The translations under genes and the position numbers were made by a program. A DNA stretch of 64,000 nucleotides from Spirulina sp. (GTDB taxonomy: Bacteria > Cyanobacteriota > Cyanobacteriia > Phormidesmidales > Phormidesmidaceae), in contig JBIPSI010000007.1 in assembly GCA_044070495.1 (NCBI GenBank), forward strand, positions 92,261 through 156,260, read 5' to 3'. Position 1 is the stretch's first letter. Each line of letters begins with the position of its first letter. The notes under the pieces were generated by a model. It saw only the letters and a list, made by a program, of their open reading frames with translations, was not told the DNA's origin and made no database searches. Positions 11,361 to 58,843 of the stretch are shown in pieces.

Positions 11361-11700
11361 AGCTAGGGACTTAAGAGTAGTCCAATTAGTAAACCATCCA
11401 AGCTAGCCCTCATCCCCCAACCCCCTCTCCGTAGGGAGAAGGGGAGCCGGATTCAGAACCCCTCTCCTGGGGGAGAGGGGCAGGGGTGAGGGTAAATGGT
11501 TACGGCCAATGGATAGTTATTTTCATGGAGCACTCTAAAGTCCTTAGCTCAACGCTGAAATCCTCTAAAGAGGATTGGGGTTCCTGTGGGAACAGGGAAC
11601 CGTAAGGGAGGCCACGGCTTACCCAGGAGTCTTGACCAAATCCGCCCTCAGTCTGCTTCAGCAGACTTTCGCCATCAGCTAGGGAGTGAACTCCCTAGAT
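11361..11700. repeat. Palindrome-rich cyanobacterial repeat (agctagggactt..agtccttagct; aatcctctaaagaggatt; agtctgcttcagcagact; ctagggagtgaactccctag) hosting a nested MITE
   Basis: Four short hairpins in the intergenic space between convergent genes. Confidence 0.6.
11375..11535. mobile_element. MITE family B (TAA target duplication) with REP-like cruciform cargo
   Basis: TAA at 11372-74 and 11536-38; imperfect ends GAGTAGTCCA/TGGAGCACTC; related inverted copy at 38133-38315. Confidence 0.7.
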
Positions 11701-11711
11701 TTAGCAGCCAT

Positions 11712-12569
11712 TTAGCGGCCATAGTCGGTCTCGTTGTAGAGAGCCAGGGCGCTGCGCCAGACTAGGTAGCCATTGGCGTTGAGGTGTAGGCCATCGGTCG
11801 AGAGATCGGGCCGTAGATAGCCGTCACCATCAACGAACAGTGGGTAAAGGTCGAGGTATTCCACCCCGGCTTCGGCAGCAATTTGTTTGATTTGGGCATT
11901 CACTGCCACGATGCGCTCTGGGGGCAAGGCCAATAGACGGTCACGGCCTTCCCAGGTAGCGGTGGGGCCACCGTGGGGTAGGATGGACTGCACCACAATT
12001 TGGGCCTGGGGATGCTGAGTTTTGAGGGCGTTGACGATGGCTCTCAGATTGCCAACCAGTTCGGCATCGGATCCGCCCCAGATCAGATCGTTAATGCCGA
12101 TCATGATGAAGGCGCTTTCCACCGAGTTTTGATCCAGCAGGGCCAGGCGGTTGAGTAGACCGCTGGAGTTTTCCCCAGAAATGGCCTGGTTCATCCAGGT
12201 TCGGCGTCCCGGCAGCAGGCTTTGGGGAAACCAGAGGGTAATGGAATCCCCCAGCAGCACCGTTTGGCGGGGCAAATCCGCTAGGGCAGCGGCGGTGGCT
12301 TCGGTTTCGAGTAAGGCTACCCACTGTTGATAGTCGAGGGTGCGACGATCTCCCAGGGTGGGCAGGGGGTGCGGTTGACCTTCGGAGGCAAAGGCATTGG
12401 CGGCGGACAAGACACTATCCGCCGGACGATGCACCTGTCGGAACAGCACCAGCACCGTGAGAAATAGCAGCCCATTCAGCACCAAAGATAGGATTACCCA
12501 CAGGGGCACCTCCCCCAGCCGTCGTAGGGCTGAGACCAGTTGGGGATGTAGGGAGGAACGTGACGCCAC
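11712..12569 (-). CDS. SGNH/GDSL lipase-acylhydrolase family protein with N-terminal TM helix
   Basis: LLGDSIT, NQAISG, MIGINDL, DGLHL catalytic blocks; start uncertain. Confidence 0.85.
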   Translation of the reverse strand: MASRSSLHPQLVSALRRLGEVPLWVILSLVLNGLLFLTVLVLFRQVHRPADSVLSAANAFASEGQPHPLPTLGDRRTLDYQQWVALLETEATAAALADLPRQTVLLGDSITLWFPQSLLPGRRTWMNQAISGENSSGLLNRLALLDQNSVESAFIMIGINDLIWGGSDAELVGNLRAIVNALKTQHPQAQIVVQSILPHGGPTATWEGRDRLLALPPERIVAVNAQIKQIAAEAGVEYLDLYPLFVDGDGYLRPDLSTDGLHLNANGYLVWRSALALYNETDYGR

Positions 12570-12927
12570 TGCGCTAGGCTGCCAGAGAGGAAAGCAACAA
12601 TCTTTGGAGAAGACAGGGCCAAAGGGAGAGTCTCTCCGTGGCCCAGATTTTAAGCCTAAATCATCATGACTGTGACTGAAACGCTGGGGTTCTTTTCGGT
12701 GATAGCTCTAATTCTATATTCCTAATTCTGTGGCCCTAAGGTTTCCAGGTGGGGGCACCTCTAAACTACCCCCCGCACACTGATCATCGCCCCAAGCCCT
12801 GGATGCTATGGCTGGATAACACGGTCTGAAGCGTACGCCATGAAGCCTATGGGCCGGGATGATGGGGTCGGTGGCGAGTTATGGAAATTTTCTCTAGATT
12901 GGGGCTAGCCGCATTCCCCGTTGCCCC

Positions 12928-13728
12928 ATGACTACTCCCGCCATCCCTAGACCATCGGTGTTGCAGGATTTGCCCGACGACTTTGCTGACCTCAGGCCGA
13001 TACTAGAGGCCAACCTGGAACCCTACATCAAGATGACCGAAACCCAGGTGACTCCGCCCCAGGTTAAGCATCCAGCGGACCCCCTGACACTGTGGCAAAG
13101 CAAGCTAGGGGGGAATCCCTATTTCCCAAAACAGGCCACCTATCCCACCGACCCCAGTACCCAGTTACCCATGGCCCTGTTGGTGCAGATTAACTGTTCC
13201 GAGGTACCCACCATTGCCGGATTTGATTTCCCCACCCAGGGCCTTCTGCAATTCTATGTGGGGGGTGCTCAACTGGCCGAAGCCTACCGTACCAAAAGCG
13301 TCCAGGTGCTCTACTTTCCAGAGGTGACCGAGGATATCGAGGCCCTGATGACGGACTTTAGCTTCATCCCCCTGCGGGAAACCTATCGCGACACCTTTGA
13401 TGCCGTTTATAGCCTCTCCTTCAGCGTCAGCCAGGATGTGTTCCTCGATTGGCATCCTCCCGACCTGGAGAACTTCGACCCGGACTTGGTGGCCGACTTC
13501 GAGGACTGGATCTACGACTACTACATCGACAACGGCGCAAACCACCTAGGCAGCAAGTTGGCGGGCTGGCCCGATCCCCACGGTTCCGTTCCCGGCCATT
13601 GGCAGCGATTGTTGTTGGAGGTGGCCAACCTAGGGGGGGTGAGCGAGTCGGTCTATTTCTTTTTAGAAGACGACAGGCTTCGCGCCCGCGACTTTAGTGC
13701 CGTGCGGTTCTATCACGAATGCGACTAA
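12928..13728 (+). CDS. DUF1963 (YwqG) family protein
   Basis: SKLGGNPYFP, LLVQINCSEVP, FPTQGLLQFY, SKLAGWP. Confidence 0.75.
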   Translation: MTTPAIPRPSVLQDLPDDFADLRPILEANLEPYIKMTETQVTPPQVKHPADPLTLWQSKLGGNPYFPKQATYPTDPSTQLPMALLVQINCSEVPTIAGFDFPTQGLLQFYVGGAQLAEAYRTKSVQVLYFPEVTEDIEALMTDFSFIPLRETYRDTFDAVYSLSFSVSQDVFLDWHPPDLENFDPDLVADFEDWIYDYYIDNGANHLGSKLAGWPDPHGSVPGHWQRLLLEVANLGGVSESVYFFLEDDRLRARDFSAVRFYHECD

Positions 13729-13751
13729 ATCCGGCGCGGCGCGGCGCGGCG

Positions 13752-14843
13752 CTACACATTAAACCGGAACAGCATCACATCGCCCTCCTGCACCACGTAC
13801 TCTTTACCTTCGCTGCGGACGAGACCCTTGTCCTTGGCGGCGGCCATGGATCCGTTATCAACAAGATCCTGATAGGCAACGGTTTCGGCCCGAATGAAAC
13901 CCCGTTCAAAGTCGGTGTGGATGACGCCAGCGGCCTGGGGGGCCAGCATTCCGGCTTTGATCGTCCAGGCGCGGGTTTCCTTGGGGCCAGTGGTGAAGTA
14001 GGTGCGTAGGCCCAGCAGTTCGTAGGTGGCGCGAATCAGGGTCAGTAGCCCTCCCTCGGTGACGCCCAGGGCATCGAGGAAGTCCCGCCGTTCCTCGTCG
14101 TTGAGGTCGATCAGTTCCGATTCTACCTGGGCTGAAATCACCACGACTTGTGCCCCCTCCTCGGCGGCGACTTGGCGCACCTGTTCTACCCAGGCATTGC
14201 CGCTGGCCAGGTCATCTTCGGAGACATTGGTGGCGTAGATAACGGGCTTGCGGGTGAGCAGTCCCAGGGGTTTGATGATGGCCTCGGCCTCTTCGTCCAG
14301 TTCCACCTGGCGGGCGGTTTTGCCCTCGTTGAGAACGGGCAGAATTTTCTCCAGAATAGCTAACTCCGCCTGGGCTTCTTTGTCAGCGCGGGCCAGCTTG
14401 CGGACTCGGTCAACCCGACGCTCTAGCTGGGCCAAATCCGCCAGGGCCAGTTCCAGGTTAATCACCTCCATGTCGCGCACCGGGTCTACGGAACCGGAGA
14501 CATGGATGATGTCGTCGTCCTCAAAGCAGCGCACCACATGGACAATGGCATCCACCTCGCGAATGTTGGCCAAAAACTGGTTGCCCAAGCCTTCCCCTTG
14601 GCTAGCCCCCTTCACTAGTCCAGCAATGTCCACAAATTCCACCCGCGCAGGCACGGTTTCGGCGGAACTGGACAGATCGGCTAGCACCTGAAGCCGAGGG
14701 TCGGGCACCGCCACCACTCCCACGTTCGGCTCGATGGTGCAGAAGGGAAAGTTGGCGGCTTGGGCCTTGGCGTTGGCAACCACGGCATTGAAGAGGGTCG
14801 ATTTTCCAACGTTGGGCAGGCCCACAATTCCGGCTCGCAGCAT
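13752..14843 (-). CDS. ychF: Redox-regulated ATPase YchF
   Basis: [36 protein letters not shown]-terminal [19 protein letters not shown]. Confidence 0.97.
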
Positions 14844-15019
14844 GGTTTAGGTCTTGAGATAAGGGGACAGGACATACCATCATACCCCTTCAGCATAGGG
14901 GAAGCCGCCGCCAATGGAGCGGCCTGTCGCAAGACCTGAGGGTTGCTATACCCTAGGGTTGCTATACCCTTAAGGCGGCAGGGGCCGTAAGACGACGTAG
15001 GTAGGGGAGGACGGGTGCG

Positions 15020-15724
15020 ATGGTAAGCGAGGGCTGGCAGGATCGGTTTAACCAGGTGGCGCAACCCCCACGGGAAGTGGGCTATCTCCAGCCAAGCGCA
15101 GCCCCCACGAGCTATCAACGGGTCTTTAGACGGCGATCTTGGTTCATCGGCCTGGGCCTGGGCCTGGGGCTGCTGCTGTCGGGCTGCGAAACCCTGGGGC
15201 TATCGGGATCATCCCCCGATGCCGATACGGAAGCGGGGAATCAGTACGTGAGTCGTTCGGTACGGGGGAGTCGGTTAATGAGCCGCACCATGCCCGCCAG
15301 TTTGGGGCTGCGACGAGGCTGGCAAATGGCTCCACCCCAATCGCTCCACCCCAACGCCGACCTGCAAGCCCACCACCCAGGACAGGGAATCTTTTTGGTG
15401 GTGCTGGGGGAAAGCAAGGCCAGCGTGATGCCAGGAACCTTGGAACAACAGGCCATGCAGTATCTTCAACTGATGCGAATGGGCTTTGACCAAGTGACGA
15501 GTCCAGAATCGCGCACGGGGGTAAGCCAGGTCGGCACCTACCCAGCAGTGCAGTACGCCCTCCAAGCCAATGTGCGGGGGGAATCGGTGGCCTACCTCCA
15601 TACCACCGTGGAAATGGGGGAGCACTACTACCAAGTGGTGACCTGGACAAAGGCGGATCGCTACTCCTCCAATGCCGACGAAATGCGGGCGGTGGTGCAA
15701 GAATTTAGCCCCGATCAGCGTTGA
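15020..15724 (+). CDS. Hypothetical lipoprotein
   Basis: Hydrophobic stretch ending LLSGC (lipobox); start uncertain. Confidence 0.6.
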   Translation: MVSEGWQDRFNQVAQPPREVGYLQPSAAPTSYQRVFRRRSWFIGLGLGLGLLLSGCETLGLSGSSPDADTEAGNQYVSRSVRGSRLMSRTMPASLGLRRGWQMAPPQSLHPNADLQAHHPGQGIFLVVLGESKASVMPGTLEQQAMQYLQLMRMGFDQVTSPESRTGVSQVGTYPAVQYALQANVRGESVAYLHTTVEMGEHYYQVVTWTKADRYSSNADEMRAVVQEFSPDQR

Positions 15725-15737
15725 GCGTCCTCAGATG

Positions 15738-15764
15738 AAAAAGCCCGCCGGGGAACCGACGGGT
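15738..15764 (-). terminator. Rho-independent terminator of the nitrile hydratase operon
   Basis: Minus strand cccgtcgg-ttcc-ccggcggg followed by CTTTTT, just downstream of hupE/ureJ. Confidence 0.65.
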
Positions 15765-15802
15765 CAATAGCAAAGGATTAGGGGCGATTCGAGAATTAAA
15801 GA

Positions 15803-16450
15803 CTACCCTAAAATGGATGCCGAGAGGAAAGCTACACCAATGCCTGAGAGAGTAAAACCCGCGAAACGTAGGTTAAGTGGCTTTACCTCACTACTTGCCC
15901 CTAGCTGCTTAGCCAACAGATAAGCACTAATAGAGATGAACATCTGAATAGCAGAGAAACCTACTAAGTAAGCAATCAATGATGACATTTCTGCCCCAAT
16001 GACAGCCTCTCCATACGCATAGCCATGGAACATGCCAGCCATCGAAGCCAGGAGAATCATGGCTCCCGCAGGCAATGAGTTCTTGGCAGCTAGAAGCAAG
16101 CCAAATACCAAAACAGATGAAGCAATAAAGAATTCTGGTGCAGGCAAGTTAAGGTTAGACAAATGAATCCCTGTACCCAGAAGTGAAGCTAGAACAAACG
16201 CCACAGGAATGAACAAGCCTCGATTAAAGATAGCGGCTAGCAAACCAATGGTGATTACAAAGGCGAGGTGATCAAGACCAATCACTGGATGTCCAACACC
16301 AGAGAGAAATCCCTCCATCGCAGTTGTTGGAGAGTCCCCACCAAATGGATGGTGAGCCAGGGCTGGGAAACATAGGGTTAACGAGGTAATAGCTACTAGA
16401 CTGCTGATGATAATCTTCGGTCTCAAGTTAGAAAAAGACTGGATATGCAT
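15803..16450 (-). CDS. HupE/UreJ family Ni/Co transporter
   Basis: ALAHHP, FLSGVGHPVIGLDHL, GMFHGYAYG motifs; multiple TM helices. Confidence 0.9.
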   Translation of the reverse strand: MHIQSFSNLRPKIIISSLVAITSLTLCFPALAHHPFGGDSPTTAMEGFLSGVGHPVIGLDHLAFVITIGLLAAIFNRGLFIPVAFVLASLLGTGIHLSNLNLPAPEFFIASSVLVFGLLLAAKNSLPAGAMILLASMAGMFHGYAYGEAVIGAEMSSLIAYLVGFSAIQMFISISAYLLAKQLGASSEVKPLNLRFAGFTLSGIGVAFLSASILG

Positions 16451-16506
16451 GGTGGGTTAGTCCTAACGGTAGTTCTAGGTTTTACAGAAGTATCAAAAGG
16501 TAGCTA

Positions 16507-16896
16507 TCAGATTGCACTAGAGGAAGCATCAGAGAGAATAGGCTCATCATGGGCACTTGCACAATCTAATAAAGTAGATAACTTTGCCTCTAGCTCTGTC
16601 TTATCTACAAGACCTGTATCTATGACAAGCTTTTCTAAAACGGTATACCAGCGCTGGTAGTAGTCCCAGGTTGGATCGTCTAGATTATGCTCTGACTCCC
16701 ACTCATCAATGGTGGAAATTAAATTTTTACGAAAGTCTTCCCACTCGTAATGCCCTTTTTTAGATAGGGCTATGGCAAGCGCAAAGGCAACCTGTTCCCA
16801 ACTTCGCTTGAAAGCAAGACTTCCATTCTCTCGAGGAGGAGATTCTTCACTGCCCATTAAGCTAGAAGCAGCAAAATGTTCAAATCGGGTAAACAT
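16507..16896 (-). CDS. Nitrile hydratase accessory protein (beta-subunit N-terminal homolog)
   Basis: PPRENGSLAFKRSWEQVAFALA...WEDFR...DYYQRWYTVLEKL; start placed at MFTRFEH. Confidence 0.85.
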   Translation of the reverse strand: MFTRFEHFAASSLMGSEESPPRENGSLAFKRSWEQVAFALAIALSKKGHYEWEDFRKNLISTIDEWESEHNLDDPTWDYYQRWYTVLEKLVIDTGLVDKTELEAKLSTLLDCASAHDEPILSDASSSAI

Positions 16897-17011
16897 GGGA
16901 AATAAACCTTCTCCCTGGCTAAAGTAAAGCTTGTCCAAGCCCAGCGGCATAGTTTTAGCTAGGGGAAAATTTCAATCCCTAAGCTGGACTTGGAAAAAAG
17001 TTCGTAACTTT

Positions 17012-17641
17012 CTAAGGAATAGCTACTGTAGCCACACCCATCATGGATTCTGGGGTAACAAGGTTGGCCAAATCATCTTCACTCATATGCTCGGTACCAG
17101 CAGGTCGTTCTGGCAGCACCCACCAGCGAATCTGTCCGCTACTATCCCAAACTCGAACCTCGATAGAATCATCTAGCTCAAGGCCAAACTCCTTTAGAAC
17201 CTTGCGAGGCTCACGGGCCGCTCTAGATCTGAAGGTTGGATCTTTATACCAGTAGGGAGGTAAACCTAACGTCGGCCAAGGGTAGCAGGAACATAGGGTG
17301 CAGATGATCAAGTTATGAACAGACGAGGTATTCTCAGCTACTCGCATGTGTTCACCTTCCGCACCAGACATGCCAGTTGTCATGCCCATCGCGTCACAGG
17401 CCGCATTGCAATCTTTGATTAAAAGCTCCTTGAACTCCGGATCAACCCATGCCTTTGCGACCAATTTAGCCCCGTTAAACGGCCCCATCTTGGACTCGAA
17501 ATATTCCAGCACCTTATTGACAGTTTCACTACCAATAATGCCTTTTTCAATCAACAAAGCTTCGAGTGCTCTAACCTTTGCAGCACTTTCTAGCTCACGA
17601 TTGGGACTATAGTTAAAGATCTCATCACCAGGAATAGACAT
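17012..17641 (-). CDS. nthA: Cobalt-type nitrile hydratase alpha subunit
   Basis: Metal-binding CTLCSCYPWP motif; GAKLVAKAWVDPEF; LPERPAGT. Confidence 0.93.
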   Translation of the reverse strand: MSIPGDEIFNYSPNRELESAAKVRALEALLIEKGIIGSETVNKVLEYFESKMGPFNGAKLVAKAWVDPEFKELLIKDCNAACDAMGMTTGMSGAEGEHMRVAENTSSVHNLIICTLCSCYPWPTLGLPPYWYKDPTFRSRAAREPRKVLKEFGLELDDSIEVRVWDSSGQIRWWVLPERPAGTEHMSEDDLANLVTPESMMGVATVAIP

Positions 17642-17674
17642 CGGTATCTCACCTCACTTCAAAAAATTCTAGGT

Positions 17675-18421
17675 CTAGGCTGCATCGAGATAGATCTCGA
17701 AAATGTCGGCGTAAAAAGTAGATCCAGGTTCAGCGAGATCTTCACCCCAGATTTCCTTAGGATCAAAGCGGACGCTATAGCTGGGCTGGGCTGGGCCTAA
17801 TCCATCAGAGGGGCCAGGAAAGTAGGCATAGCACCCTTCATAAACGAGGTCAATAACTCCGGTCTTACCACGCAAATGCCCTGGCAGTCGAGTATGTTCA
17901 ACCACTGGCATATCCTTGACCACTACAGTCTCACCTACGGAGAACTTTGGCTGAATATTGACGTCTCGCTTCGGAGAGTCACCCAGTTCTAAGTACTTGA
18001 TGACTTGCTCATCAATAGCGGCAATTTCCTTCTGAGGAAGTGGGAAGGGGTCAACGTTCCCCTCTTTCAGATAAAAACTGATTTTCTGATCCAGTTCTTC
18101 TTGGGAAATATACCCTTTCTCAACAAAGAAGCCAGAGATACCACCTAACCACTTTTCGTAGTATCGAAATTTGAAGTAGTCGAAGGGGTTCATGGCTTCT
18201 GCCCCTCGCCGCAAATCAGCCCAAGTCCAGATATCCTTAAAGGTTGTAGGAACCTGCTCAATGGGATAATTAGGTAATGCATCCTTGAGGTGAGCACTTA
18301 AACCCATCATGGCTGTATGAATGCCGAAGATGCGCTTTTCCCATTGCTCAACAAATACTTTCTTCTGAAAGTCTACGGGGCCAAGTCCTTCTAGGCTGCC
18401 TAGAGAATGCTGTAATTTCAT
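17675..18421 (-). CDS. nthB: Nitrile hydratase beta subunit
   Basis: WEKRIFG, YYEKWL, PKFSVGETV, HTRLPGHLRGKTG, YSVRFDPKEIWG; adjacent to the alpha subunit. Confidence 0.9.
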   Translation of the reverse strand: MKLQHSLGSLEGLGPVDFQKKVFVEQWEKRIFGIHTAMMGLSAHLKDALPNYPIEQVPTTFKDIWTWADLRRGAEAMNPFDYFKFRYYEKWLGGISGFFVEKGYISQEELDQKISFYLKEGNVDPFPLPQKEIAAIDEQVIKYLELGDSPKRDVNIQPKFSVGETVVVKDMPVVEHTRLPGHLRGKTGVIDLVYEGCYAYFPGPSDGLGPAQPSYSVRFDPKEIWGEDLAEPGSTFYADIFEIYLDAA

Positions 18422-18471
18422 AAACTCTTTAGCTCCATTTCACTGATTTCAAGATTTGAATTGTGCTGATT

Positions 18472-19002
18472 TTAGATGTCCTTAGCGGTTTCCCTAGCCG
18501 CCTCAACGACAGCAGGAGTTGTCGTCATCGCTTTGCCCCAAGCTTCGGAAAGATAGCCAAAGATGTTTCCTAGAATCATGGCTGCAATAGCAATTAAAAC
18601 TGGGTTATTGGGTAAGGGAGCTGTCACCGATAAGCCTGTCACGGCAACAGTACCAACGGTTTGTGAAAAACCCCACACAATGGCAGGAGTAATACCGTGG
18701 GTGAAAGGAAGCTTTGAGGCCTGCACCATGCCAGCGCTACCAATACCAACACAAATGGCGGCAACGAGGGGACTCGGCCCAATTAGATCAATGGCCAATA
18801 AAGAAAGAGCTGCAATGATAATCCCCGTAATATTACAGGAAACAGATTTAGTAAATCCTCGAACGCCACCCCCAACGATAAAAAAGGAGGCCCAGGCCGT
18901 GAAGGTAACCCAAACGGGTACAGGGATGACAGTTGCCGTCAAAAATACATCTACACCGCCAAGAACACCGATGCTAATACTCAGGGCTTCGGACTGTTTC
19001 AT
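18472..19002 (-). CDS. DUF1097 family integral membrane protein (candidate substrate permease)
   Basis: PVWVTFTAWASFFIVGG, PAIVWGFSQT; about 5-6 TM helices. Confidence 0.75.
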   Translation of the reverse strand: MKQSEALSISIGVLGGVDVFLTATVIPVPVWVTFTAWASFFIVGGGVRGFTKSVSCNITGIIIAALSLLAIDLIGPSPLVAAICVGIGSAGMVQASKLPFTHGITPAIVWGFSQTVGTVAVTGLSVTAPLPNNPVLIAIAAMILGNIFGYLSEAWGKAMTTTPAVVEAARETAKDI

Positions 19003-19028
19003 AATAGGCTTGGCTCCGAATTATTTGG

Positions 19029-22829: not shown

Positions 22830-22959
22830 CTGGTTGACTGACAAAAGATCCTGCGCCGGACGCGGAAACCGCGCCCCTACAAGATTTGGATAATGTAGGG
22901 GTCAGGTCTCCTGACCCTTTGGCGGATCTGGGTTCTCGCAAGTTTTGTCAGTCAACCAG
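22830..22959. mobile_element. MITE family A, 130 bp, 17-bp perfect TIR, 9-bp TSD
   Basis: CTGGTTGACTGACAAAA...TTTTGTCAGTCAACCAG flanked by GCTCGATCA on both sides. Confidence 0.9.
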
Positions 22960-24561: not shown

Positions 24562-24912
24562 ATGCCACTAATCAAGGTGCAAACCTCGGTACCCTCCCCC
24601 GATAAGGCCCAAGTGGAGAGCCTGCTGAAGGATCTGTCGGCCCGCTTGGCCAGCCATTTGGGCAAGCCCGAATCCTACGTGATGACCTCCTTCACCGCCG
24701 ATGTACCCATGACCTTTGCGGGCACCACCGACCCCGTCTGCTACATCGAAATCAAAAGCGTCGGCACGATGGGCAGCAAAACCAAAGCCATGAGCCAAGA
24801 TTTCTGTACCCAGGTGGAAAGCGCCCTTGGCGTACCGAAAAATCGGGTGTATATCGAATTTGCCGATGCCCCAGGGGCCATGTGGGGCTGGAACGGCGGC
24901 ACCTTTGGGTAG
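24562..24912 (+). CDS. MIF-family (phenylpyruvate) tautomerase
   Basis: Pro-1 after Met (MPLIK), GKPESYVM, WGWNGGTF. Confidence 0.9.
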   Translation: MPLIKVQTSVPSPDKAQVESLLKDLSARLASHLGKPESYVMTSFTADVPMTFAGTTDPVCYIEIKSVGTMGSKTKAMSQDFCTQVESALGVPKNRVYIEFADAPGAMWGWNGGTFG

Positions 24913-24936
24913 ATTTATGGTTAACGCAAAGTCCTC

Positions 24937-25035
24937 GCAGCCCTCACCCTAAATCCCTCTCCCCAAGGGAGAGGGACTTTGAAACAGGTTCTGGCTCCCC
25001 TCTCCCACAGGGAGAGGGGCTGGGGGTGAGGGCCA
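24937..25035. repeat. REP-like cruciform (ccctcaccc...ccctctccc/gggagaggg...gggtgaggg)
   Basis: Same unit as in the elements at 11375, 38133, 47472 and 53943; no TIR shell found here. Confidence 0.75.
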
Positions 25036-25075
25036 TACCGTAGGTTGCCGTGGTTTTGTCATGGACTGAACTGGC

Positions 25076-33861: not shown

Positions 33862-34009
33862 CAGCAATTCTCATTTTGGTCAATTGGCCGTTCGCCCTGA
33901 GCCTGTCGAAGGGTGAAAAGGCTTGCTCCCTAAGGGAGCCACTGCGTGAACGGCAGGTTCAGCCTGAGCGGTATTTTATTCACCAGTCTAGTCATACTGA
34001 GAATTGCTG
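33862..34009. mobile_element. MITE family E, 148 bp, 12-bp TIR CAGCAATTCTCA, near-perfect 9-bp TSD, REP cargo
   Basis: Flanks AGAATATGA / AGAATATTA; internal gttcgccctgagcctgtcgaaggg repeat. Confidence 0.65.
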
Positions 34010-34098: not shown

Positions 34099-34170
34099 GG
34101 CTCAGTAGCTCAGTGGTAGAGCAGGGGACTCATAAGCCCTTGGTCGCGTGTTCAAATCACGCCTGAGCCA
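34099..34170 (+). tRNA. tRNA-Met(CAT), elongator type
   Basis: GGCTCAG acceptor pairs with CTGAGCC, D-loop AGTGGTAGAGC, anticodon loop CTCATAA, T-loop TTCAAAT; CCA not encoded. Confidence 0.93.
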
Positions 34171-38132: not shown

Positions 38133-38315
38133 GAATACTCCGTGGAAATAACTATCCATTTATCGTAGGCATCCGCCCTCACCCCTGCCCCTCTCCCTAG
38201 GGAGAGGGGTTCTGAATCCGGCTCCCCTTCTCCTTAGTCCCCTTCTCCTTAGGGAGAAGGGGTTGGGGGATGAGGGCGAAGCTCGGACGTGGATGCTTTA
38301 TTGGTTGGATTACGC
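38133..38315. mobile_element. MITE family B, second copy (inverted), with internal duplication
   Basis: TTA at 38130-32 and 38316-18; reverse complement resembles 11375-11535. Confidence 0.7.
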
Positions 38316-42297: not shown

Positions 42298-42361
42298 CGA
42301 CAAAAGATCCCAGGGTTCTTCAAGAACTTTGTGATCTACTGAGACTATTCAAAACCACTTA

Positions 42362-42492
42362 GAGGACGTTTGAAAAGCCGAAGCTTGTCCCAAGTTATAC
42401 CGATGAGGTCAGCCTCAGTCGTCAAAAATCCCGTAGATTTGAACCGATCTAGCGACCAATCGCACCTGAGGCAACCCTTTTCAAACGCCCTC
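42362..42492. mobile_element. MITE family D, 131 bp, TIR GAGG(A/G)CGTTTGAAAAG, TTA/TAA TSD (IS5-like)
   Basis: TTA at 42359-61 and 42493-95; inverted copy at 58477-58598. Confidence 0.85.
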
Positions 42493-47471: not shown

Positions 47472-47645
47472 CTGGTTGACTGACACAAGTTTATGGCCCA
47501 CCCTGCGGGAAGCAAGCTACACCCCCAACCCCTCTCCCAGAGGGCGAGGGGAGCCGATCCAGTTTTCCAGTTCCCTCTCCCCGTGGGAGAGGGCTAGGGT
47601 GAGGGCTTTCGAGGATCTGGCTAGCAAGTTTTGTCAGTCAACCAG
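47472..47645. mobile_element. MITE family A variant, 174 bp, different cargo
   Basis: Same TIRs as 22830/58714 (one mismatch on the left); TSD ATCAATGGG/ATCAACGGG. Confidence 0.8.
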
Positions 47646-51265: not shown

Positions 51266-51325
51266 GCTGGAGGATAAACCGTACTGCGTTGGCCACCGTT
51301 AGATAACGTTAGGCCTGAGAAACCG

Positions 51326-51885
51326 TCAATCCTCTGGGCTGTTGGCCCCTTCATTCGATTCTTGATCCAACACCTGCTGATACTCCTCAAGCTGCGCCAG
51401 GGCCAGGGCTATTGCTTGTCGGTGGTCGTCGGTGGGGTCGAGTTGATACCGGATTTGCGCCGCAAGGCATCGTACTTGGAGTCGATCTCGTCGAGTTTCT
51501 CGTTCACGCGCCTCTGCCTCTCTTTCCGCTGCTTCGCGATCTCGTCGAGCCTCGCGTTCTCTTGCTTCAGCCTCGCGTTCTCTTGCTTCAGCCAGGCGGT
51601 TTGTTTCTCGTTCGCGAAGCGTGTCTTTAGACAATTTCGACGGTTCCACTCAACGCCGAAATTAACCAATGTAGCCAGGAGGGCTGCCACGGTGAATCGG
51701 TTACTCCAGAGTCGGGGGTTGGCGATAAATCCGAGGAGGGGGAAATCTTGGACATCGTAGAACCGCAGAAAGGCAATGGCGAGGGTGAGCACGGCCAGGG
51801 TGGTGGCAGGCAGCAGCGATAGAAAATTCAGCCAAACTTGGGGGTTGAATAGTCCCATTTTAGCGGAGGTGTTTTGCTGCCCCAT
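51326..51885 (-). pseudogene. Membrane + coiled-coil protein gene frameshifted by a 23-nt insertion
   Basis: Removing 51611-51633 joins ...GVEWNRRN to RETNRLAEARERE... in one frame. Confidence 0.75.
51611..51633. mobile_element. SDR-like very small dispersed repeat (ttcgcgaagcg + TGTC-TTTA-GACA hairpin)
   Basis: Precise excision restores the frame; inserted between CG and AT. Confidence 0.65.
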
Positions 51886-51985
51886 TGTACTCACCCCACA
51901 GAACCGCGTTTTGGGGCCTGGGTCGCCTGTAATGTGGATGGGGGCGTACCTAGAGGTTGGGGGACTACCGACCAAAGTTAGCGAT

Positions 51986-52060
51986 CCCCCTAAATCCCCC
52001 TTAAAAAGGGGGACTTTGAAGCGGACTCAGACCCCCCTTTTTAAGGGGGGCAGGGGGGAT
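51986..52060. repeat. REP-like hairpin pair (cccccttaaaaaggggg type)
   Basis: atccccctaaatcccccttaaaaaggggg...ccccctttttaagggggg...ggggggat; related unit at about 55950. Confidence 0.65.
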
Positions 52061-52148
52061 ACCCCAACCGTGGCATATGCCCTCGTGGGTGGGCTAACCC
52101 AGAAACCGGGTTTTTCGTCATACTGTAGCGAGGCTCTAGACTAGGGCT

Positions 52149-53138
52149 GTGACTACCGATCCTAGAAATAACGCTTCTGTGACTTCCGACTCCTTCGATT
52201 CCTTTGACCCGCTGAGTTTTAGCACCATCCCCACGCCGCCGGAGGGGTTCAAATCGGGCTTTGTGGGCATTGTGGGGCGGCCCAATGTGGGCAAATCGAC
52301 CCTGATGAACGCCCTGGTGGGACAAAAGGTGGCGATTACCTCCCCCACGGCGCAAACCACCCGCAACCGTCTGCGGGGCATTCTGTCTAACGACCAGGCC
52401 CAAATTATTTTTGTGGACACCCCCGGCATCCACAAGCCCCACCATGAGTTAGGCAAAATTCTGGTCAAAAACGCCCGCATGGCCATCGATGCCGTGGATG
52501 CCACCCTGTTTGTGGTGGATGGCAGCGTGGCGGCGGGCCGGGGAGATGAGTTTGTCGCTTCCCTACTGGCCCCCAGTGCGGTGCCCGTGATTTTGGGCCT
52601 CAATAAAATCGACCAGCAGCCCGCCGAAGAGGCCGAAGCCATCGATGCCAGCTACCAGGCCATGGCCGATACCCACGGTTGGCCCCTGGTGAAGTTTTCC
52701 GCCCTCCACGAGCAGCAGCTCGATACCCTGCTGCAAACCCTGATCGAACGCCTCGACCCTGGCCCCTACTACTACCCCCCCGACCTGGTGACCGACCAGC
52801 CAGAGCGGTTCATCATGGGCGAACTGATCCGCGAACAAATTCTGCTCCACACCCGCGAAGAGGTGCCCCACTCTGTCGCCATCGCCATCGACCGAGTGGA
52901 GGAGGACACCACCATCACCCGCATCCTCGCCACCATCCACGTCGAGCGCGACTCCCAAAAGGGCATTTTGATTGGCAAGCGGGGCAGTATGCTGAAAACC
53001 ATCGGCTCCGAGGCCCGCCAGCAAATCCAAAAGCTGGTGATGGGACAGGTTTACCTAGAACTGTTCGTCAAAGTGGTGCCCAAGTGGCGACAATCCCGCA
53101 GCCGCCTGGAAGACTTTGGCTATCGCGTGGAGGAGTAG
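52149..53138 (+). CDS. era: GTPase Era
   Basis: [27 protein letters not shown]-domain REEVPHS. Confidence 0.96.
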   Translation: MTTDPRNNASVTSDSFDSFDPLSFSTIPTPPEGFKSGFVGIVGRPNVGKSTLMNALVGQKVAITSPTAQTTRNRLRGILSNDQAQIIFVDTPGIHKPHHELGKILVKNARMAIDAVDATLFVVDGSVAAGRGDEFVASLLAPSAVPVILGLNKIDQQPAEEAEAIDASYQAMADTHGWPLVKFSALHEQQLDTLLQTLIERLDPGPYYYPPDLVTDQPERFIMGELIREQILLHTREEVPHSVAIAIDRVEEDTTITRILATIHVERDSQKGILIGKRGSMLKTIGSEARQQIQKLVMGQVYLELFVKVVPKWRQSRSRLEDFGYRVEE

Positions 53139-53141
53139 CCC

Positions 53142-53879
53142 ATGGTGCCCCCCGCCCCGCCGCCCCCGGCTCTGCTCACCCAGGTGGCGCGACTATTTCC
53201 AGAGGCGCTGTTCTATGCCCCCACCCAGCAGCGCCAGATTGCCCTCACCATCGACGACATCCCCACACCGGGCGACCAAGACGACGCCTCCACCCGCCTC
53301 ATCCTCGCCGCCCTAGAGAGCTATAACCGCACCGCCAAACACCCTGTGCGGGCCACCTTTTTTGTGATTACTGACCACCTCAATCCGGGCAGCACCATCC
53401 TGACCGACATCCTGGCGGCGGGCCACGAAATCGCCAACCACGGCACCACCGACACCACCCCAGCCATCCTCCAACCCGCCGAGTTTGAACGCCACTTCCG
53501 CGAAGCCCACGACCTGATCACCGACACCACCCAGCAGCCGATCCGCTGGTACCGCCCTGGGCGCGGCTTCTATAACCGGGCCATGGTGGAACACCTGAAG
53601 CTCACTCCAGGCTACGAATCCCTCGTCGCCCTCGCCTCCATGGTGCCCTTCGACACCTTCCAGCCCCTCAGCACCCCTACCCTCAACAAATGGTACCTAT
53701 CGCGGTTCATCTTTCCGGGAGCGATTTTTGTCATGCACGGCGGGTCGATGGAACGCTGTCTGCAAACCGCCCAAGCCCTACCGCCCCTGCTCAAACTCAT
53801 GGAACGCCAGGGCTACCAAGTCGGCACCCTCTCCGCCCTCTACGACAACCTCGTCGCCGAGTCGCCTCCATCCCAGTGA
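53142..53879 (+). CDS. Polysaccharide deacetylase (CE4)
   Basis: LTIDD, ATFF, HEIANH, YRPG, MHGG. Confidence 0.88.
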   Translation: MVPPAPPPPALLTQVARLFPEALFYAPTQQRQIALTIDDIPTPGDQDDASTRLILAALESYNRTAKHPVRATFFVITDHLNPGSTILTDILAAGHEIANHGTTDTTPAILQPAEFERHFREAHDLITDTTQQPIRWYRPGRGFYNRAMVEHLKLTPGYESLVALASMVPFDTFQPLSTPTLNKWYLSRFIFPGAIFVMHGGSMERCLQTAQALPPLLKLMERQGYQVGTLSALYDNLVAESPPSQ

Positions 53880-53942
53880 CGCAACATGGCTCAGTCTTCT
53901 GCCCCTAGCCCTGTCCTTAAAAGCATAGAAAAACTCAGTTAA

Positions 53943-54120
53943 CCTGAGTTCGGGATAAAACAAACGCTGCAATCTTGGGAAACCTGCTTCCAGCTTGCAC
54001 CTCAGCCCTCACCCTAAATCCCTCTCCCTACGGGAGAGGGACTTTGAACCTTCTAGCTCCCCTCTCCTCCCTGGGAGAGGGGCTGGGGGTGAGGGCCACT
54101 ATGTTTAACCCGAACTGAGG
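53943..54120. mobile_element. MITE family C, 178 bp, TTAA-flanked, REP cargo
   Basis: CCTGAGTTCGGGATAAA...TTTAACCCGAACTGAGG (17-bp TIR, 2 mismatches), TTAA on both sides. Confidence 0.75.
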
Positions 54121-54220
54121 TTAAGTTAACTATTAATGTTTCGTTAGATATGGCTATTTTTGGAGGCAGGTAGCGGTTGAATGAGACTAACCACCTACGC
54201 CATTCCCATGGGCTATCTCT

Positions 54221-55378
54221 ATGAAACCTAAATTGCTGCTGATGGCCATGGTGTTGCTGCTGACAGCGTGCGATGGCTTAGAGGCAAGGCAAGGGGCAGA
54301 TTCCCCTGTTGCAGAGGCAGGAGAGAAGGGTACCCTCTCAACGCCCGAATCTAGCGGCCACAGTGCGATCCGCAACGATCCGGAGTCTACCCAGATCGAT
54401 CAGTGGATGGCGCAGGATGAACCTGGCCCCGGCGGGGTGGTGATGGTGGTTCAGTCTGGCGAGATTGTTCATCAACAGGGCTATGGGCTGGCCGATGTGG
54501 ATCAGGGCATTCCCATCACCCCAGAGACCCGGTTCCATCTCGGCTCCGTGGGTAAGCAGTTTACCGCCATGGGCGTGTTGATGCTGGTGGATCAAGGACA
54601 AGTGGCCTTGGATGACCCGATCAGCGCCCACATTCCTGAGTTGGATTGGATGGATGAGGGGGTGACGGTGCGCCGCCTGCTGCACCATACCTCTGGCGTG
54701 ATGGGATACGACGATAGCGACGACATCTATGATGCGCTGCTGAACTCGTCTTCCACCCCTGGCAACGAGGATGTGGTGACGGCCATCTCGCAATTCCAAG
54801 AGATGTTGTTTGATCCGGGCGAGGAGTTCCATTACAGCAACACGGGCTACGACCTGCTAGGCCTGCTGATTGAGCGTATCTCCGGCCAAACCTATGGCCA
54901 ATTTATGGAGGACTCCATCTTTGCGCCCCTAGGCATGAGAAATACCTTTGCCCTGCCCAGCGACGAGCGTTTTGGCCCATCGGTGGCCCAGAGCTATGAC
55001 GCAGATGGCCCCTACGAACCGGATATTTTGGACAACGTGAATGGCTCCGGCAGCCTCTATTCCACCCTGGGCGACCTGTATCTATACAATCAGGCCTGGT
55101 CTACCGAAACCCTAGTGAGTCAGGACTTGCTGGCGGAGATGGTGACGTCAGGAACCCTGCGCAATGGCGAGGAAACCGACTATGGCTTTGGGGTTGAGGT
55201 CTATACCTACGGTGACTATGACTATGTGGCCCATCAAGGGGCTTGGCTGGGTTTTGACAGCTACTATCTACGTTTTCCTGAGGAAAGCCTGACTATCGTG
55301 GTGCTGCTCAACCTAGACTATGCCGAGCAGGATGCGGAAACGATGGCGTTTGCGATTGCCGATTTGTATTTACCCTAA
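54221..55378 (+). CDS. Serine hydrolase (class C beta-lactamase/PBP-like) lipoprotein
   Basis: Lipobox LTAC, SVGK, YSNTGY, HQG. Confidence 0.9.
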   Translation: MKPKLLLMAMVLLLTACDGLEARQGADSPVAEAGEKGTLSTPESSGHSAIRNDPESTQIDQWMAQDEPGPGGVVMVVQSGEIVHQQGYGLADVDQGIPITPETRFHLGSVGKQFTAMGVLMLVDQGQVALDDPISAHIPELDWMDEGVTVRRLLHHTSGVMGYDDSDDIYDALLNSSSTPGNEDVVTAISQFQEMLFDPGEEFHYSNTGYDLLGLLIERISGQTYGQFMEDSIFAPLGMRNTFALPSDERFGPSVAQSYDADGPYEPDILDNVNGSGSLYSTLGDLYLYNQAWSTETLVSQDLLAEMVTSGTLRNGEETDYGFGVEVYTYGDYDYVAHQGAWLGFDSYYLRFPEESLTIVVLLNLDYAEQDAETMAFAIADLYLP

Positions 55379-55439
55379 GAGGATACAGCCGCTCCAGCCT
55401 CGACTTCGGGGGCAGCGCCTCCTTACCCAGGGGAGCAGG

Positions 55440-55847
55440 TTAGTCGCCCTGGGTGGGGGATTCGCGCATAGTGACCGTCCCCGTATCCACGGCTTGGCCA
55501 TCGCGGGAGAGGGTGCAGGTATCGCTACCGTTGGGGATAAACAACTCCCACTGATTCTCGCCCAGAACATTGCTGTAGGTGTGGCCTTCGGGGTTGGGTT
55601 CTCGCTTTACCTCGGTGTTGAGAAAGACGACACGATCTGCGCGGTAATAGAGCCGCATAGTGAGCGGGCTACCCGATTCAGGATCGCCGGGATAGTAGAT
55701 GTTAATGGCGTAGGCATCACCGTCGCAGTAGGCAATGCTGAAATCGGCCTGGGCAGGGCGTTCTATTAGGCTCAGGCTAGCCAAGGTGCCAGCGGCCACG
55801 GCAATGCCTAGGGAAACAGGTTTTAACCAAGATTTGAGGGACAGCAT
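55440..55847 (-). CDS. Hypothetical secreted protein
   Basis: Signal peptide ending AQA; 135 aa. Confidence 0.7.
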   Translation of the reverse strand: MLSLKSWLKPVSLGIAVAAGTLASLSLIERPAQADFSIAYCDGDAYAINIYYPGDPESGSPLTMRLYYRADRVVFLNTEVKREPNPEGHTYSNVLGENQWELFIPNGSDTCTLSRDGQAVDTGTVTMRESPTQGD

Positions 55848-55865
55848 ATCATCTCCAAAATAATA

Positions 55866-56014
55866 TATAGCGGTTCTCGGTTCAGTGAGGTACAGCTTTT
55901 GGGGCTTCAGATCCCCCCAGGTTCTATCTGTAGTCGGTTCATCTTGTACCCCCCTTATTAAGGGGGGATGGGGGGATCTTCACGGTGCACCTCATTCTAG
56001 GGAAATTCGCTATA
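55866..56014. mobile_element. MITE family F (TATAGCG...TGAGGT imperfect TIR, TA ends) with hairpin cargo
   Basis: Left tatagcggttctcggttcagtgaggtaca versus right (reverse complement) tatagcgaatttccctagaatgaggtgca. Confidence 0.5.
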
Positions 56015-56239
56015 GATGTTTCAAATGTGAGCATTAAACCAGATCCCAGGGGTCTAGTTCTAATCAGGCACGTCTTGAGAGAAACCCCACGGCAAACTCC
56101 TGGGATCTTTGGTAACCACGGACTTGACCCTTAAGGGCACATGAACCGACCGTTAATGGTGTTGAAAATCGCACCACCGAGGATGCCCTTTCGCCGTCCG
56201 TAGGGGTGGCTGGCTGCGATTACAGGTGAATGCTGGGCA

Positions 56240-56497
56240 GTGTCCACCCTACTTGAGGAAAAACTTGATTTCGATGACTCCTTTGAAAGCTTACTAGATC
56301 GATTAGCCGTAATGAAGGTCGATTTTATCCCGATTAACATTGCTCATCTAGAAGCCTATATCAACTTACCTGTTCTGTCCGATCACCGAGATCCCTTTGA
56401 TAGAATTCTGATTTCTCAAGCGACGAGACATAATCTAAATTTAGTGAGTGCAGATACAGCCTTTGATGCCTATCCTATTCGGCGGGTATGGGAATGA
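56240..56497 (+). pseudogene. PIN-domain (VapC-like) toxin, N-terminus missing
   Basis: HRDPFDRILISQA...LVSADTAF...W; upstream replaced by a REP-like ggcagtgtccaccctac. Confidence 0.7.
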
Positions 56498-56659
56498 GTA
56501 ACGTAGGGTAGATTCGCAAAGTAATGCACCAATCTTACCCAGCAGGACATTCGCTGGAGGTGGGTGGTGCATGGCGGCAAAATTGGTGCTTGCCACATGG
56601 GCAAAAAAAGTTGGTGCCGCGAATGTACCCTACAGTTTTGGGGGGGTTCCACGGCGATT

Positions 56660-57688
56660 TCAACAAATGCGAGGCAGTTGATCGCCCACCAGACGATCCA
56701 AAATGCGATCACTACCAAAGGCAGTTTTGAGCAGCACAAACCCCACGGGGTCAGCCACTACTTCACCGATGATGTGGCTATCGGTTCCGGCGGGGTGGGC
56801 ACGCATGGCGGCAAGAACGGCCTGGGCCTGATCCGGGGGCACAACGACGACAAGTTTGCCTTCGTTGGCGAGGTACAGCGGGTCAAGACCCAGTAGTTCG
56901 CAAAGTCCCTGAACGGCGGGCCGCACGGGCAGGGCGCTTTCCTGCAAACGAAGGCCCACCTGGGAGCTAACGGCAAATTCATTCAAGACTGTAGCCAGCC
57001 CGCCGCGAGTGGCATCGCGCATGGCCCGCACCTGGGGGCAGACCTTCAGAATCTCGGAGACCAGACCATTCAGGGGTTGGCAGTCGCTTTCGATGGGGCT
57101 TTCTAGGGCTAGATCCGCCCGCGCTACGGTAATCGCTGCCCCGTGGTCGCCTAGGAACCCATTCACCAGCACGATGTCCCCCGGCTGTAGCCGATCCGCT
57201 GAGGGAGCAATTCCCTCCGGCACCCGCCCCACCCCAGCGGTGTTGATAAACAGCTTGTCGGCGCTGCCCCTGGGCACCACCTTAGTGTCTCCGGTAACGA
57301 TCTTCACCCCCGCCGCCGCCGCCGCCTGGGCCATACTTTCCACCACCCGCCGCAGGGTGTCTATAGGCAACCCTTCTTCCAGAATGAAACCACAGGTGAG
57401 GTAGAGGGGGGTTGCGCCTCCCACGGCCAGGTCGTTGACGGTGCCGTTGACGGCCAAGGCTCCAATGTCGCTGCCGGGGAAAAAGAGCGGATCCACCACG
57501 TAGGAATCTGTGGTTAAGGCCAGCCGTCCCCCCGGCCAATCCATCACCGCCTGGTCGTTCAGGGGAGCTAGCAGAGCATTGTCAAACCGCCGCACAAACA
57601 CCTCGGCCACCAAATCGGCCATGGCCTTGCCGCCGCTGCCGTGGGCCAGGGTAATGCAAGTTTCCCGCTGTGTTTTTGCCAAACCCAT
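56660..57688 (-). CDS. hypE: Hydrogenase maturation protein HypE
   Basis: LAHGSGG, TTDSYVVDPLFFPG, RDATRGG, C-terminal QLPRIC. Confidence 0.96.
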   Translation of the reverse strand: MGLAKTQRETCITLAHGSGGKAMADLVAEVFVRRFDNALLAPLNDQAVMDWPGGRLALTTDSYVVDPLFFPGSDIGALAVNGTVNDLAVGGATPLYLTCGFILEEGLPIDTLRRVVESMAQAAAAAGVKIVTGDTKVVPRGSADKLFINTAGVGRVPEGIAPSADRLQPGDIVLVNGFLGDHGAAITVARADLALESPIESDCQPLNGLVSEILKVCPQVRAMRDATRGGLATVLNEFAVSSQVGLRLQESALPVRPAVQGLCELLGLDPLYLANEGKLVVVVPPDQAQAVLAAMRAHPAGTDSHIIGEVVADPVGFVLLKTAFGSDRILDRLVGDQLPRIC

Positions 57689-57901
57689 CTAGCCCCAATC
57701 CGTACGACGTAAGTTTTAGCATGGCAAGCTGTTTGCCGCTATCGGCCAATTCCTGGGCGTTTCTTAAGATTTTTCGGCCCCTTGCCGGTCTGGCAAACGC
57801 ACGGCGGTGTTCCCCTACCCGCAATTGAATCCCTTGGGCGCATGGCGATGCGCCCCTACGGCATGGGGGATAATGCTGGTGTCTGTGTTTGCCCTTGGTT
57901 T

Positions 57902-58447
57902 ATGAACCTACCCACCTGGATTACCGTGTCGCGCCTGCTGGGGGTGCCGTTGATTTTGATGTTGCTCATCCAGCCCACCCCCTACGAACGGTGGATTGCG
58001 GCGGGGATTTTTTTGCTGGCGGCGGGAACAGACTGGCTGGATGGCTACCTAGCCCGCAAGCTGGATCAGGTGACGGAGTTGGGGAAATTTCTCGACCCGC
58101 TGGTAGATAAGCTGCTGGTATTGGCTCCGCTGCTGGTGTTGGTGGAACTCAATCAGGTGCCCGCCTGGGGGGTGTTTTTAATTGTGGCCCGCGAAATCAC
58201 CATTGCCGGATGGCGGGTAAATCCAGCAATGCAGAGCGGTGGGGTGCCGGGGGCCAACCTCTGGGGCAAAGCCAAAACCGTGGTGCAGATTGCCGCAATT
58301 ACGGCCCTAATTGCGCCCCTACCGGAGGCGTTTGTGCTGCCGAGCCAGATCCTCTTTTGGCTAGCGGTGGCCCTCACCTTGGTGTCGGGTCTGTTATATC
58401 TACTGCCTGCCCTGCGTGCTCCCAACGATGGCCTAGACACGCCGTGA
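57902..58447 (+). CDS. pgsA: CDP-diacylglycerol--glycerol-3-phosphate 3-phosphatidyltransferase
   Basis: MNLPTWIT, TDWLDGYLARK, GKFLDPLVDK. Confidence 0.95.
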   Translation: MNLPTWITVSRLLGVPLILMLLIQPTPYERWIAAGIFLLAAGTDWLDGYLARKLDQVTELGKFLDPLVDKLLVLAPLLVLVELNQVPAWGVFLIVAREITIAGWRVNPAMQSGGVPGANLWGKAKTVVQIAAITALIAPLPEAFVLPSQILFWLAVALTLVSGLLYLLPALRAPNDGLDTP

Positions 58448-58476
58448 TCTTTGTAGGCAGGTACCCTTTCATCTAA

Positions 58477-58598
58477 GAGGGCGTTTTGCTTCAGGTGCGG
58501 TTGGTCGCTAGATCGGTGCAAATCTACGGGATTTTTGACGACTGAGGCTGACCTCATCGGTATAACTTGGGACACGCTTCAGCCTTTCAAACATCCTC
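58477..58598. mobile_element. MITE family D, second copy (inverted, one TIR partly deleted)
   Basis: TAA at 58474-76 and 58599-601; reverse complement of 42362-42492. Confidence 0.8.
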
Positions 58599-58713
58599 TA
58601 AACGGGCTTTGGCTCCGACATTCCGCAGGTTGACCAATAATTTTCGACTTTTATTGGTATAACAGCCAAACAAATTTTTAGCTGGTTAAAAATGAAAGCA
58701 GAGTGAATAATCG

Positions 58714-58843
58714 CTGGTTGACTGACAAAACTTGCGAGAACCCAGATCCGCCAAGAGGTCAGGAGACCTGACCCCTACATTATCCAAATCTTGTAGGGGC
58801 GCGGTTTCCGCGTCCGACGCAGGATCTTTTGTCAGTCAACCAG
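58714..58843. mobile_element. MITE family A, second copy (inverted)
   Basis: Perfect TIRs, TSD GAATAATCG; about 3 mismatches to the 22830 copy. Confidence 0.9.

Follow-up and report, generated by a model that had tools for sequence, protein, structure and literature searches.

Several miniature inverted-repeat transposable element families of a cyanobacterial genome carry the BoxC double hairpin, a repeat that probably spreads inside transposon shells

Catalogues of the BoxC/PIT/TM repeats date back to the 1990s. These repeats abound in both enterobacteria and cyanobacteria and have been tied to genome instability, with no known mechanism of spread. The motif is made of three blocks of 9 nt that can form an intrastrand triplex, two linker types have been published for it (A, TTA or ATTTA; B, CCGG or CTGG), its E. 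coli units form inverted A/B pairs, and its abundance in cyanobacteria includes reports from Synechocystis, Microcystis, Anabaena and Nostoc (Holder et al. 2015, PMC4666352). Another group of palindromic units, the repetitive extragenic palindromes (REPs) of the REP/REPIN-RAYT systems, are extragenic, occur at high copy number as inverted doublets and as singlets, and lack a target-site duplication (TSD) (Bertels & Rainey 2011, PMC3116915; Quentin et al. 2018, PMC6006769). [quoted passage not shown] Finally, IS1397 and ISKpn1 target palindromes of REPs and of bacterial interspersed mosaic elements (BIMEs) (Tobes & Pareja 2006, as cited in PMC3116915). MITEs, REP-targeting insertions and BoxC/TM motifs are each already known; in the literature searched, however, we did not find the BoxC/TM doublet described as a core shared, across cyanobacteria, by several MITE families whose termini are unrelated. 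Here we analyzed a 64,000-nt stretch of a Spirulina sp. genome (the window; C7:92261-156260 of assembly G000, which comprises 5.31 Mb in 74 contigs) that contains real MITEs from several unrelated families, and a double hairpin, the cargo, that lies in the core of a number of them.

Our preferred reading, which we consider probable, is that the window repeats are true MITEs moved in trans, that the BoxC doublet is chiefly their passenger, and that unrelated transposon-end shells captured this core repeatedly. As several MITE families carry the BoxC double hairpin, the repeat probably spreads inside transposon shells. The repeats share with the IS-derived MITEs the properties listed above, an IS with matching TIRs being found for A, A' and G, and differ from them in that several families with unrelated termini have one conserved, pan-phylum core.

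By direct alignment, the cargo is a doublet of BoxC/PIT/TM units in inverted A/B arrangement. Both halves read CCCTCTCCC-loop-GGGAGAGGG-linker-GGGTGAGGG (C-rich arm, loop, G-rich arm and third G-rich block), the three blocks being identical to those in Table 1 of PMC4666352; an A half (linker ATTTA) and a B half (GCTGG) form the inverted pair, with the left half approximately the reverse complement of the right. Cargo and BoxC/PIT/TM are thus alike in motif, in the two linker types, in inverted A/B pairing and in intergenic position (PMC4666352). The identity was established on E. coli K-12 loci: the cargo aligns colinearly with the lldD-proximal pair at 3,781,019-3,781,169, and the other K-12 pairs (4/5) have the opposite internal order, with the hairpins outside, and a longer conserved spacer. 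BLAST of the cargo against an E. coli collection returned no match, probably due to the low-complexity filter and the database size. Four K-12 pairs (L141, L159, L160 and L161) have a common consensus of ~120 nt that includes the spacer between TM units, and the E. coli doublet is therefore also a larger unit; inspection of the K-12 flanks by eye revealed no evident TIR shell.

In the window, the cargo hairpin CCCTCTCC-N3-9-GGAGAGGG was found seven times, against none in 100 shuffles; together with the fold z-scores, this rules out chance or low complexity as its source. The genome holds ~72 full doublets, referred to here as TM-I, and ~100 partial copies. A variant, TM-II, keeps the TM-I linkers (TAAAT, ACTTTGA, CCGGyT, CTrG) on different stems, with GATCCCCC outside and C5-6T..AG5-6 hairpins inside, and looks like a homologous module of TM-I with compensatory stem replacement. 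TM-II was seen, for example, in the last 185 nt of C45 (J/F copies) and at window positions 55940-55975.

As single-stranded DNA the cargo is predicted to fold into a three-way junction (dG -34 kcal/mol, z -5.4, for duplex-type folding only). Such a stable predicted structure, the strong conservation of stems and linkers from E. coli to cyanobacteria and the compensatory stem changes between TM-I and TM-II would suit a doublet selected by the host mainly as a structural signal (such as a site for protein binding, a triplex or three-way junction, or a terminator), which MITEs tolerate or exploit. We regard this explanation as very unlikely, as E. coli PIT elements had no promoter, terminator or replication effect in vivo, according to the summary given in PMC4666352, and the copies found here are scattered, nested, truncated and interrupted by other MITEs. 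Moreover, no Rfam family matches the cargo, the only hits being miRNA hairpins below threshold.

We then related the cargo to the shells, defined by TIR and TSD, in a strict TIR-pair census of the genome. In the resulting shell-by-core matrix, the core type tracks the shell family: TM-I doublets were present in 5/5 B, 11/12 G and 7/10 C elements (plus two singlets in C), in one of 33 A elements, and in none of the A' (0/6), D (0/48) and E (0/4) elements, whereas TM-II was present in 15/15 J and 23/28 F elements, as one hairpin in F. TM-I is the standard core of G, C, B and a further family, P, and the core of a minority A lineage. An initial annotation of this DNA had placed the same cruciform in shells A, B and C; this applies to B and C, as standard core, and to the A element at 47472, but A mostly lacks the TM motif. 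Over the whole genome, 53 of the 72 doublets had at least one recognisable shell arm, scored above a 99% null threshold that still missed the decayed copy at 24937 discussed below. In this respect the cargo differs from its E. coli counterpart, for which no link to mobile elements was reported (PMC4666352), as most doublets here lie inside TIR shells with TSDs.

The cargo phylogeny pointed in the same direction. The tree required 24 shell-label changes vs 39.1 with shuffled labels, and none of 200 shuffles was as low; the A clade (four copies) was supported at 100/100 and the B clade at 99/93. Independence of cargo and shell, named beforehand as the outcome that would speak against a modular system, was thus not what we found. 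In addition, cargo ends lacked flanking direct repeats in 58 of 60 copies, the TSDs sitting at the shell ends. These observations support that shells and cargo move together, with cargo clustering by shell and TSDs at shell ends only. Given that the doublet has no ends, TSD or HUH gene of its own and is the standard core of several shells, it would multiply mainly as a passenger when the shell transposes.

The ten elements marked in the window by the initial annotation were all found in place, and its six shell types are all real, but more families exist (A', G, J and P too). The features are given below in window coordinates; no strand is assigned unless stated.

22830..22959: MITE A, standard 130-bp form, with a multi-hairpin core and no TM motif; 9-bp TSD GCTCGATCA.
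58714..58843: MITE A, standard form in inverse orientation; 9-bp TSD GAATAATCG.
47472..47645: A2-type chimera, A ends with a TM-I (BoxC) doublet core; TSD ATCAATGGG/ATCAACGGG.
11375..11535: MITE B, TIR GAGTAGTCCAATTAG / GAGTGCTCCATGAAA, with a TM-I doublet core of subtype t2; TSD TAA.
38133..38315: MITE B in inverse orientation, far arm degenerate; TSD TTA.
53942..54121: MITE C, TIR ACCTGAGTTCGGGATAA, its core a TM-I doublet; TSD TA (or TTAA).
42362..42492: MITE D, TIR GAGGRCGTTTGAAAAG, without TM core; TSD TTA.
58477..58598: MITE D in inverse orientation, slightly shortened; TSD TAA.
33862..34009: MITE-like E, TIR CAGCAATTCTCA; 9-bp TSD AGAATATGA/AGAATATTA, matching at 8/9 positions.
55866..56014: MITE F, TIR TATAGCGGTTCTCG, with one TM-II hairpin unit (CCCCCCTTATTAAGGGGGG-AT-GGGGGGATC).
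24909..25071: decayed family G MITE, containing the TM-I doublet 24937-25035.
42328..42343, minus strand: solo family G terminal repeat, exact CTCAGTAGATCACAAA, abutting the D MITE at 42362 (D1).
47500..47519, plus strand: 20-nt insertion 'H', ACCCTGCGGGAAGCAAGCTA, located in an outer-stem arm of the A2 core; the G027 copies described below lack it.

Overall, the repeats of the window are true MITEs that fall into nine or more TIR families; the families recognised number more than six, with A, A', B, C, D, E, F, G, J and P as a minimum. TIRs of 12-20 nt are present in A, B, C, D, E, F, G and J, and a family-specific TSD length recurs at independent copies (9 bp for A and J, TNA for D and B), with TA the probable TSD of C and G. 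Thus, the TIR/TSD pairs first seen in the window are reproduced at other copies, families A, B, C and D recurring genome-wide with their family TSDs. Family A, a 130-bp MITE with TIR CTGGTTGACTGACA(A/C)AA, also given as CTGGTTGACTGACAAAA, has 46 end-to-end copies, several of them 98-100% identical and most with a clean 9-bp TSD; the copy at 22830 has a 100% identical copy elsewhere in the genome and a fold z of -7.7. For family D, 45 end-to-end copies were counted, many of which share 97-99% identity; the TAA assigned to it at first is right for the copy ending at 58598, but the family TSD is TNA (TTA, TAA, TCA, TGA). Similarly, TTAA is possible at the window copy of C, but over the ~15 copies of that family the flanks fit a TA TSD with TIR ACCTGAGTTCGGG. 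There are seven to nine copies of B genome-wide (TSD TNA), 33 end-to-end copies of F, which show no clear TSD, and two to four of E. The other hairpin units initially ascribed to A, E and F correspond in A to the multi-hairpin core, but the unit in F is the TM-II variant of the cargo itself. A tRNA gene lies at 34099-34170 (plus strand; Rfam, 68.9 bits), 90 nt downstream of the E element.

The doublet at 24937 had been taken for a copy without a shell. It aligns, however, over its full length with four intact copies of family G, a shell with TIR CTCAGTAGATCRCAAA, 158-179 bp long and with a probable TA TSD, that houses many cargo copies; the left arm has a 10-nt indel and the right arm is mutated. 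On this alignment the 24937 doublet is a decayed G MITE, and 'naked' copies are probably for the most part MITEs with decayed arms. At the orthologous site, the congener G005 keeps a truncated G left arm and the spacer of G002 is empty, which made 24937 the sole informative syntenic site for a filled/empty comparison. By contrast, synteny with the congeners G005, G002 and G016 was broken at A1, A2, A3, B2, C, D1, D2, E and F; site B1 (11375) was outside the stretches compared. The solo G repeat at 42328-42343 appears to be a remnant of a G element or of an IS-G end, heading to the upstream open reading frame (ORF).

Within near-identical G shells the TM-I core occurs in both orientations, in 6 vs 9 copies (e.g., C22:75059 vs C20:33525) that are intermixed in the tree, which suggests recurrent inversion between the 10-12-bp arms of the outer stem. 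The same finding would also fit a doublet that is itself mobile in a REPIN-like manner, through an HUH/Y1 or other enzyme that leaves no TSD, and that prefers the centre (apical loop) of fold-back MITEs. Several further observations are in line with such independent mobility: the doublet is an inverted pair like a REPIN and single units also occur, it is always central between the arms of the shell, an empty appearance is seen in one or two G shells (C13:105995, C16:54515) and different cores in others, the doublet is pan-cyanobacterial and wider than any shell, and the lack of a TSD fits HUH chemistry. Nevertheless, cargo lineages follow the shells, the core type is fixed per family, and no filled/empty pair differing by exactly the doublet was found. 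Together with the evidence on Y1 genes given next, this leads us to consider independent mobility unlikely.

The cargo had initially been called REP-like, and it does resemble REPs and REPINs in the traits listed for them above. However, it differs from them in lacking a GTAG/CGTC foot, its arms beginning (CAG)CCCTCACCC, and in not being organised around a Y1 gene. Two Y1_Tnp genes are present in the genome, on C3 and C16. The former (L016:1226-2100 = C3:236.1-237.0 kb) has RAYT-like motifs (DHLH, YLHYNP) and is a pseudogene, broken by an A'-type MITE (9-bp TSD CTGGTTACC) and a 46-bp tandem duplication; the repeat on its flanks is a GTAG-REP distinct from the cargo, GTAGGGTGGGCACTGCCCACC, with 105 genome copies. 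The latter (L015:1417-2561 = C16:82.4-83.6 kb) has an NHVH motif and is split by an inserted ORF whose product resembles a four-helix-bundle protein, and no repeat family was seen around the gene. The 3-kb loci around both genes contained no cargo motif (none within ~1.5 kb), and a Y1_Tnp match was absent in four relatives with 8-29 cargo matches, two of which are at least 95% complete. A RAYT-type REP was therefore rejected as the identity of the cargo, which has no foot, does not lie near Y1 genes and differs from the GTAG-REP of the RAYT-like gene.

The two routes first envisaged, cargo hitchhiking in MITEs or inserting into them, fared differently. Clustering by shell and TSDs at shell ends agree with the former, but no insertion of cargo into a MITE was seen, and the nesting that can be read directionally is the reverse, with MITE J entering cargo loops and making a 9-bp TSD. 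Family J (~165 bp, TIR CTACTAAGTACACA) has a TM-II doublet core and is located almost only in TM hairpin loops, with the TSD centred on the loop, e.g., CCCCAAGGG at C27:36002. About 42 J ends abut a TM-I arm, against a background of 2%, and most of the other true ends abut TM-II hairpins. Sites of this kind include C27:36002-36265, C3:33486-33650, C8:55262-55426, C34:24842-25006 and ~20 more, and J likewise lies in TM loops in three other genomes (L035, L058, L100). J thus recalls IS1397 and ISKpn1, which, in the account cited in PMC3116915, insert into REP/BIME palindromes; it differs from them in that its target palindrome is of BoxC type and not a REP, and in being itself a MITE with a TM-II core.

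The A2 chimera at 47472 is informative on how shell and core came together. It is a member of a four-copy clade in G000, and could be taken for a cargo swap in shell A within this genome; yet the same A+cargo chimera, ~90% identical and with its own 9-bp TSDs, is abundant in G027, a genome of another family. Therefore, the swap is old and the chimera transposes as a unit.

The distribution of the cargo was surveyed in 31 relatives of 13 genera. The doublet was present in 28 of these genomes (11/13 genera), and family A in five. An exact 35-nt half-motif matched more than 117 stretches, including Nostoc, Tolypothrix, Leptolyngbya, Nodosilinea, Phormidesmis, Stenomitos, Geitlerinema, Laspinema and Spirulina. 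The G shell surrounds the doublet also in Tildeniella, Leptolyngbya and FACHB-1136, and TIR shells of other kinds enclose the same core in Nostoc, Tolypothrix, Geitlerinema, Leptolyngbya-like taxa and others; these shells include two Nostoc types, a GGGTGCATCCCAGTTTTGCA type (found once in G000) and a Geitlerinema type. These other-genome shells were judged by inspection, the null of the shell-agnostic inverted-flank test being contaminated by shared families. From the occurrence of one core in different shells of other cyanobacteria we infer repeated capture, in which unrelated shells would have acquired the core independently. The route could be template switching while a gap at a highly stable hairpin is repaired, or selection, at the level of the element, of a core able to bring the termini together.

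Alternatively, the core-sharing shells (G, C, B, P, N1, N2 and others) might descend from one core-bearing ancestor whose TIRs were switched. A TA TSD is probable for both C and G, their terminal words are similar (CCTGAGT / CTCAGTA), the core sequence is 80-90% conserved across cyanobacterial families, and TM-II retains the TM-I linkers. Even so, B has a TNA and A a 9-bp TSD, with termini that bear no relation to those of C and G, the shells differ completely in the sequence separating TIR from core, and the A shell mostly has an unrelated core; a common ancestor with TIR switching seems improbable to us on these grounds. Repeated capture could, on the other hand, be taken further, with the BoxC/TM double hairpin as a pan-cyanobacterial 'universal MITE core' whose three-way junction aids transposition of short elements; the junction might bring the two termini together or stall replication at the donor. 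We put this forward tentatively, as a possible but rather doubtful extension. If true, the BoxC/PIT repeat, an orphan for 30 years, would gain a concrete way of spreading, enterobacterial relics included.

To be mobilised in trans, the shells would depend on DDE transposases of full-length ISs elsewhere in the genome. As initially annotated, the window holds no cognate transposase, and no PF01609, PF13358 or PF01797 match was found on its whole contig. Contig breaks in G000 fall ~137-141 nt inside repeated ISs, and because of this IS bodies are mostly absent from the assembly. An IS-A end with the A terminus, reading into the C-terminus of a transposase ORF, was found at four G000 contig ends, and a complete IS-A in G018 (~1323 bp) has the family A TIR, a 9-bp TSD and a 382-aa DDE_Tnp_1 protein. 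A related element, IS-A', is intact on C51 of G000. Both IS-G ends, with the G terminus, were found at eight G000 contig ends, and G018 has a full copy, which codes for a DDE_Tnp_1 protein of 360 aa. ORFs between matching TIRs scored 30.6 (IS-A), 34.7 (IS-G) and 31.4 bits (IS-A') against PF01609, with a cut-off of 23 bits. Judged by termini and predicted proteins, A, A' and G have cognate DDE elements of the IS4/IS5 type, in agreement with the initial view of the shells as non-autonomous IS derivatives, which their family TIRs and TSDs also bear out. An IS5-type element (DUF4096 + DDE_Tnp_1_2) is also present in G000, and a truncated IS630-like gene adjoins one F copy. D and B (TSD TNA) would have an IS5-type partner, and C and F (TSD probably TA in C, putatively TA in F) an IS630-type one. 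The contig-end census yielded no autonomous partner for B, C or F, and D ends were MITE copies alone, in an assembly that mostly lacks IS bodies; E-like contig ends (C36, C54) differ from the E TIR at 2/14 positions.

Passenger spread with repeated capture has to be set against several findings. No recognisable arm was detected in 19 of the 72 doublets, the core lies in both orientations inside near-identical G shells, its distribution goes far beyond that of any single shell (28/31 relatives vs 5/31 for A), and the E. coli BoxC survey found no link to mobile elements (PMC4666352); each of these could indicate independent mobility or host selection. In addition, no insertion polymorphism of a cargo-bearing MITE was caught, nearest-congener synteny being broken at every compared site except 24937, and the search for autonomous partners gave none for B, C and D, F having just the adjacent truncated IS630-like gene. 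Nevertheless, a doublet that forms the core of MITEs with defined termini, TSDs and matching transposases makes the question of BoxC spread testable by trans-mobilisation. It also depicts MITE families as built of exchangeable modules, namely transposase-set termini and a common structural core.

The nearest named genomes, Nodosilinea sp. and "Phormidium sp. FACHB-1136", have 88-92% nucleotide identity across several kb. The MITE-bearing spacers of the window (~33.9, 38.2, 42.4, 47.5, 54.0, 55.9 and 58.5-58.8 kb) each coincide, where checkable, with a synteny break relative to G005, and the genes flanking them map to different G005 contigs. This coincidence may reflect a generally scrambled gene order.

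A further layer of nesting is given by the H module, which has ~24 copies in G000 across several shells, in the outer-stem arm of the TM-I doublet. Layered nesting of this sort, with a MITE in core loops and a 20-nt insert in the stem, matters for repeat annotation and for rearrangement hot spots in cyanobacteria. H is possibly a micro-element akin to the small dispersed repeats (SDRs) of Nostoc, which are mobile micro-elements of 21-27 nt nested in larger repeats; H resembles them by its nesting, and its sequence is apparently unrelated. Variants of H were also observed in the Nostoc loci L034, L037, L073 and L094.

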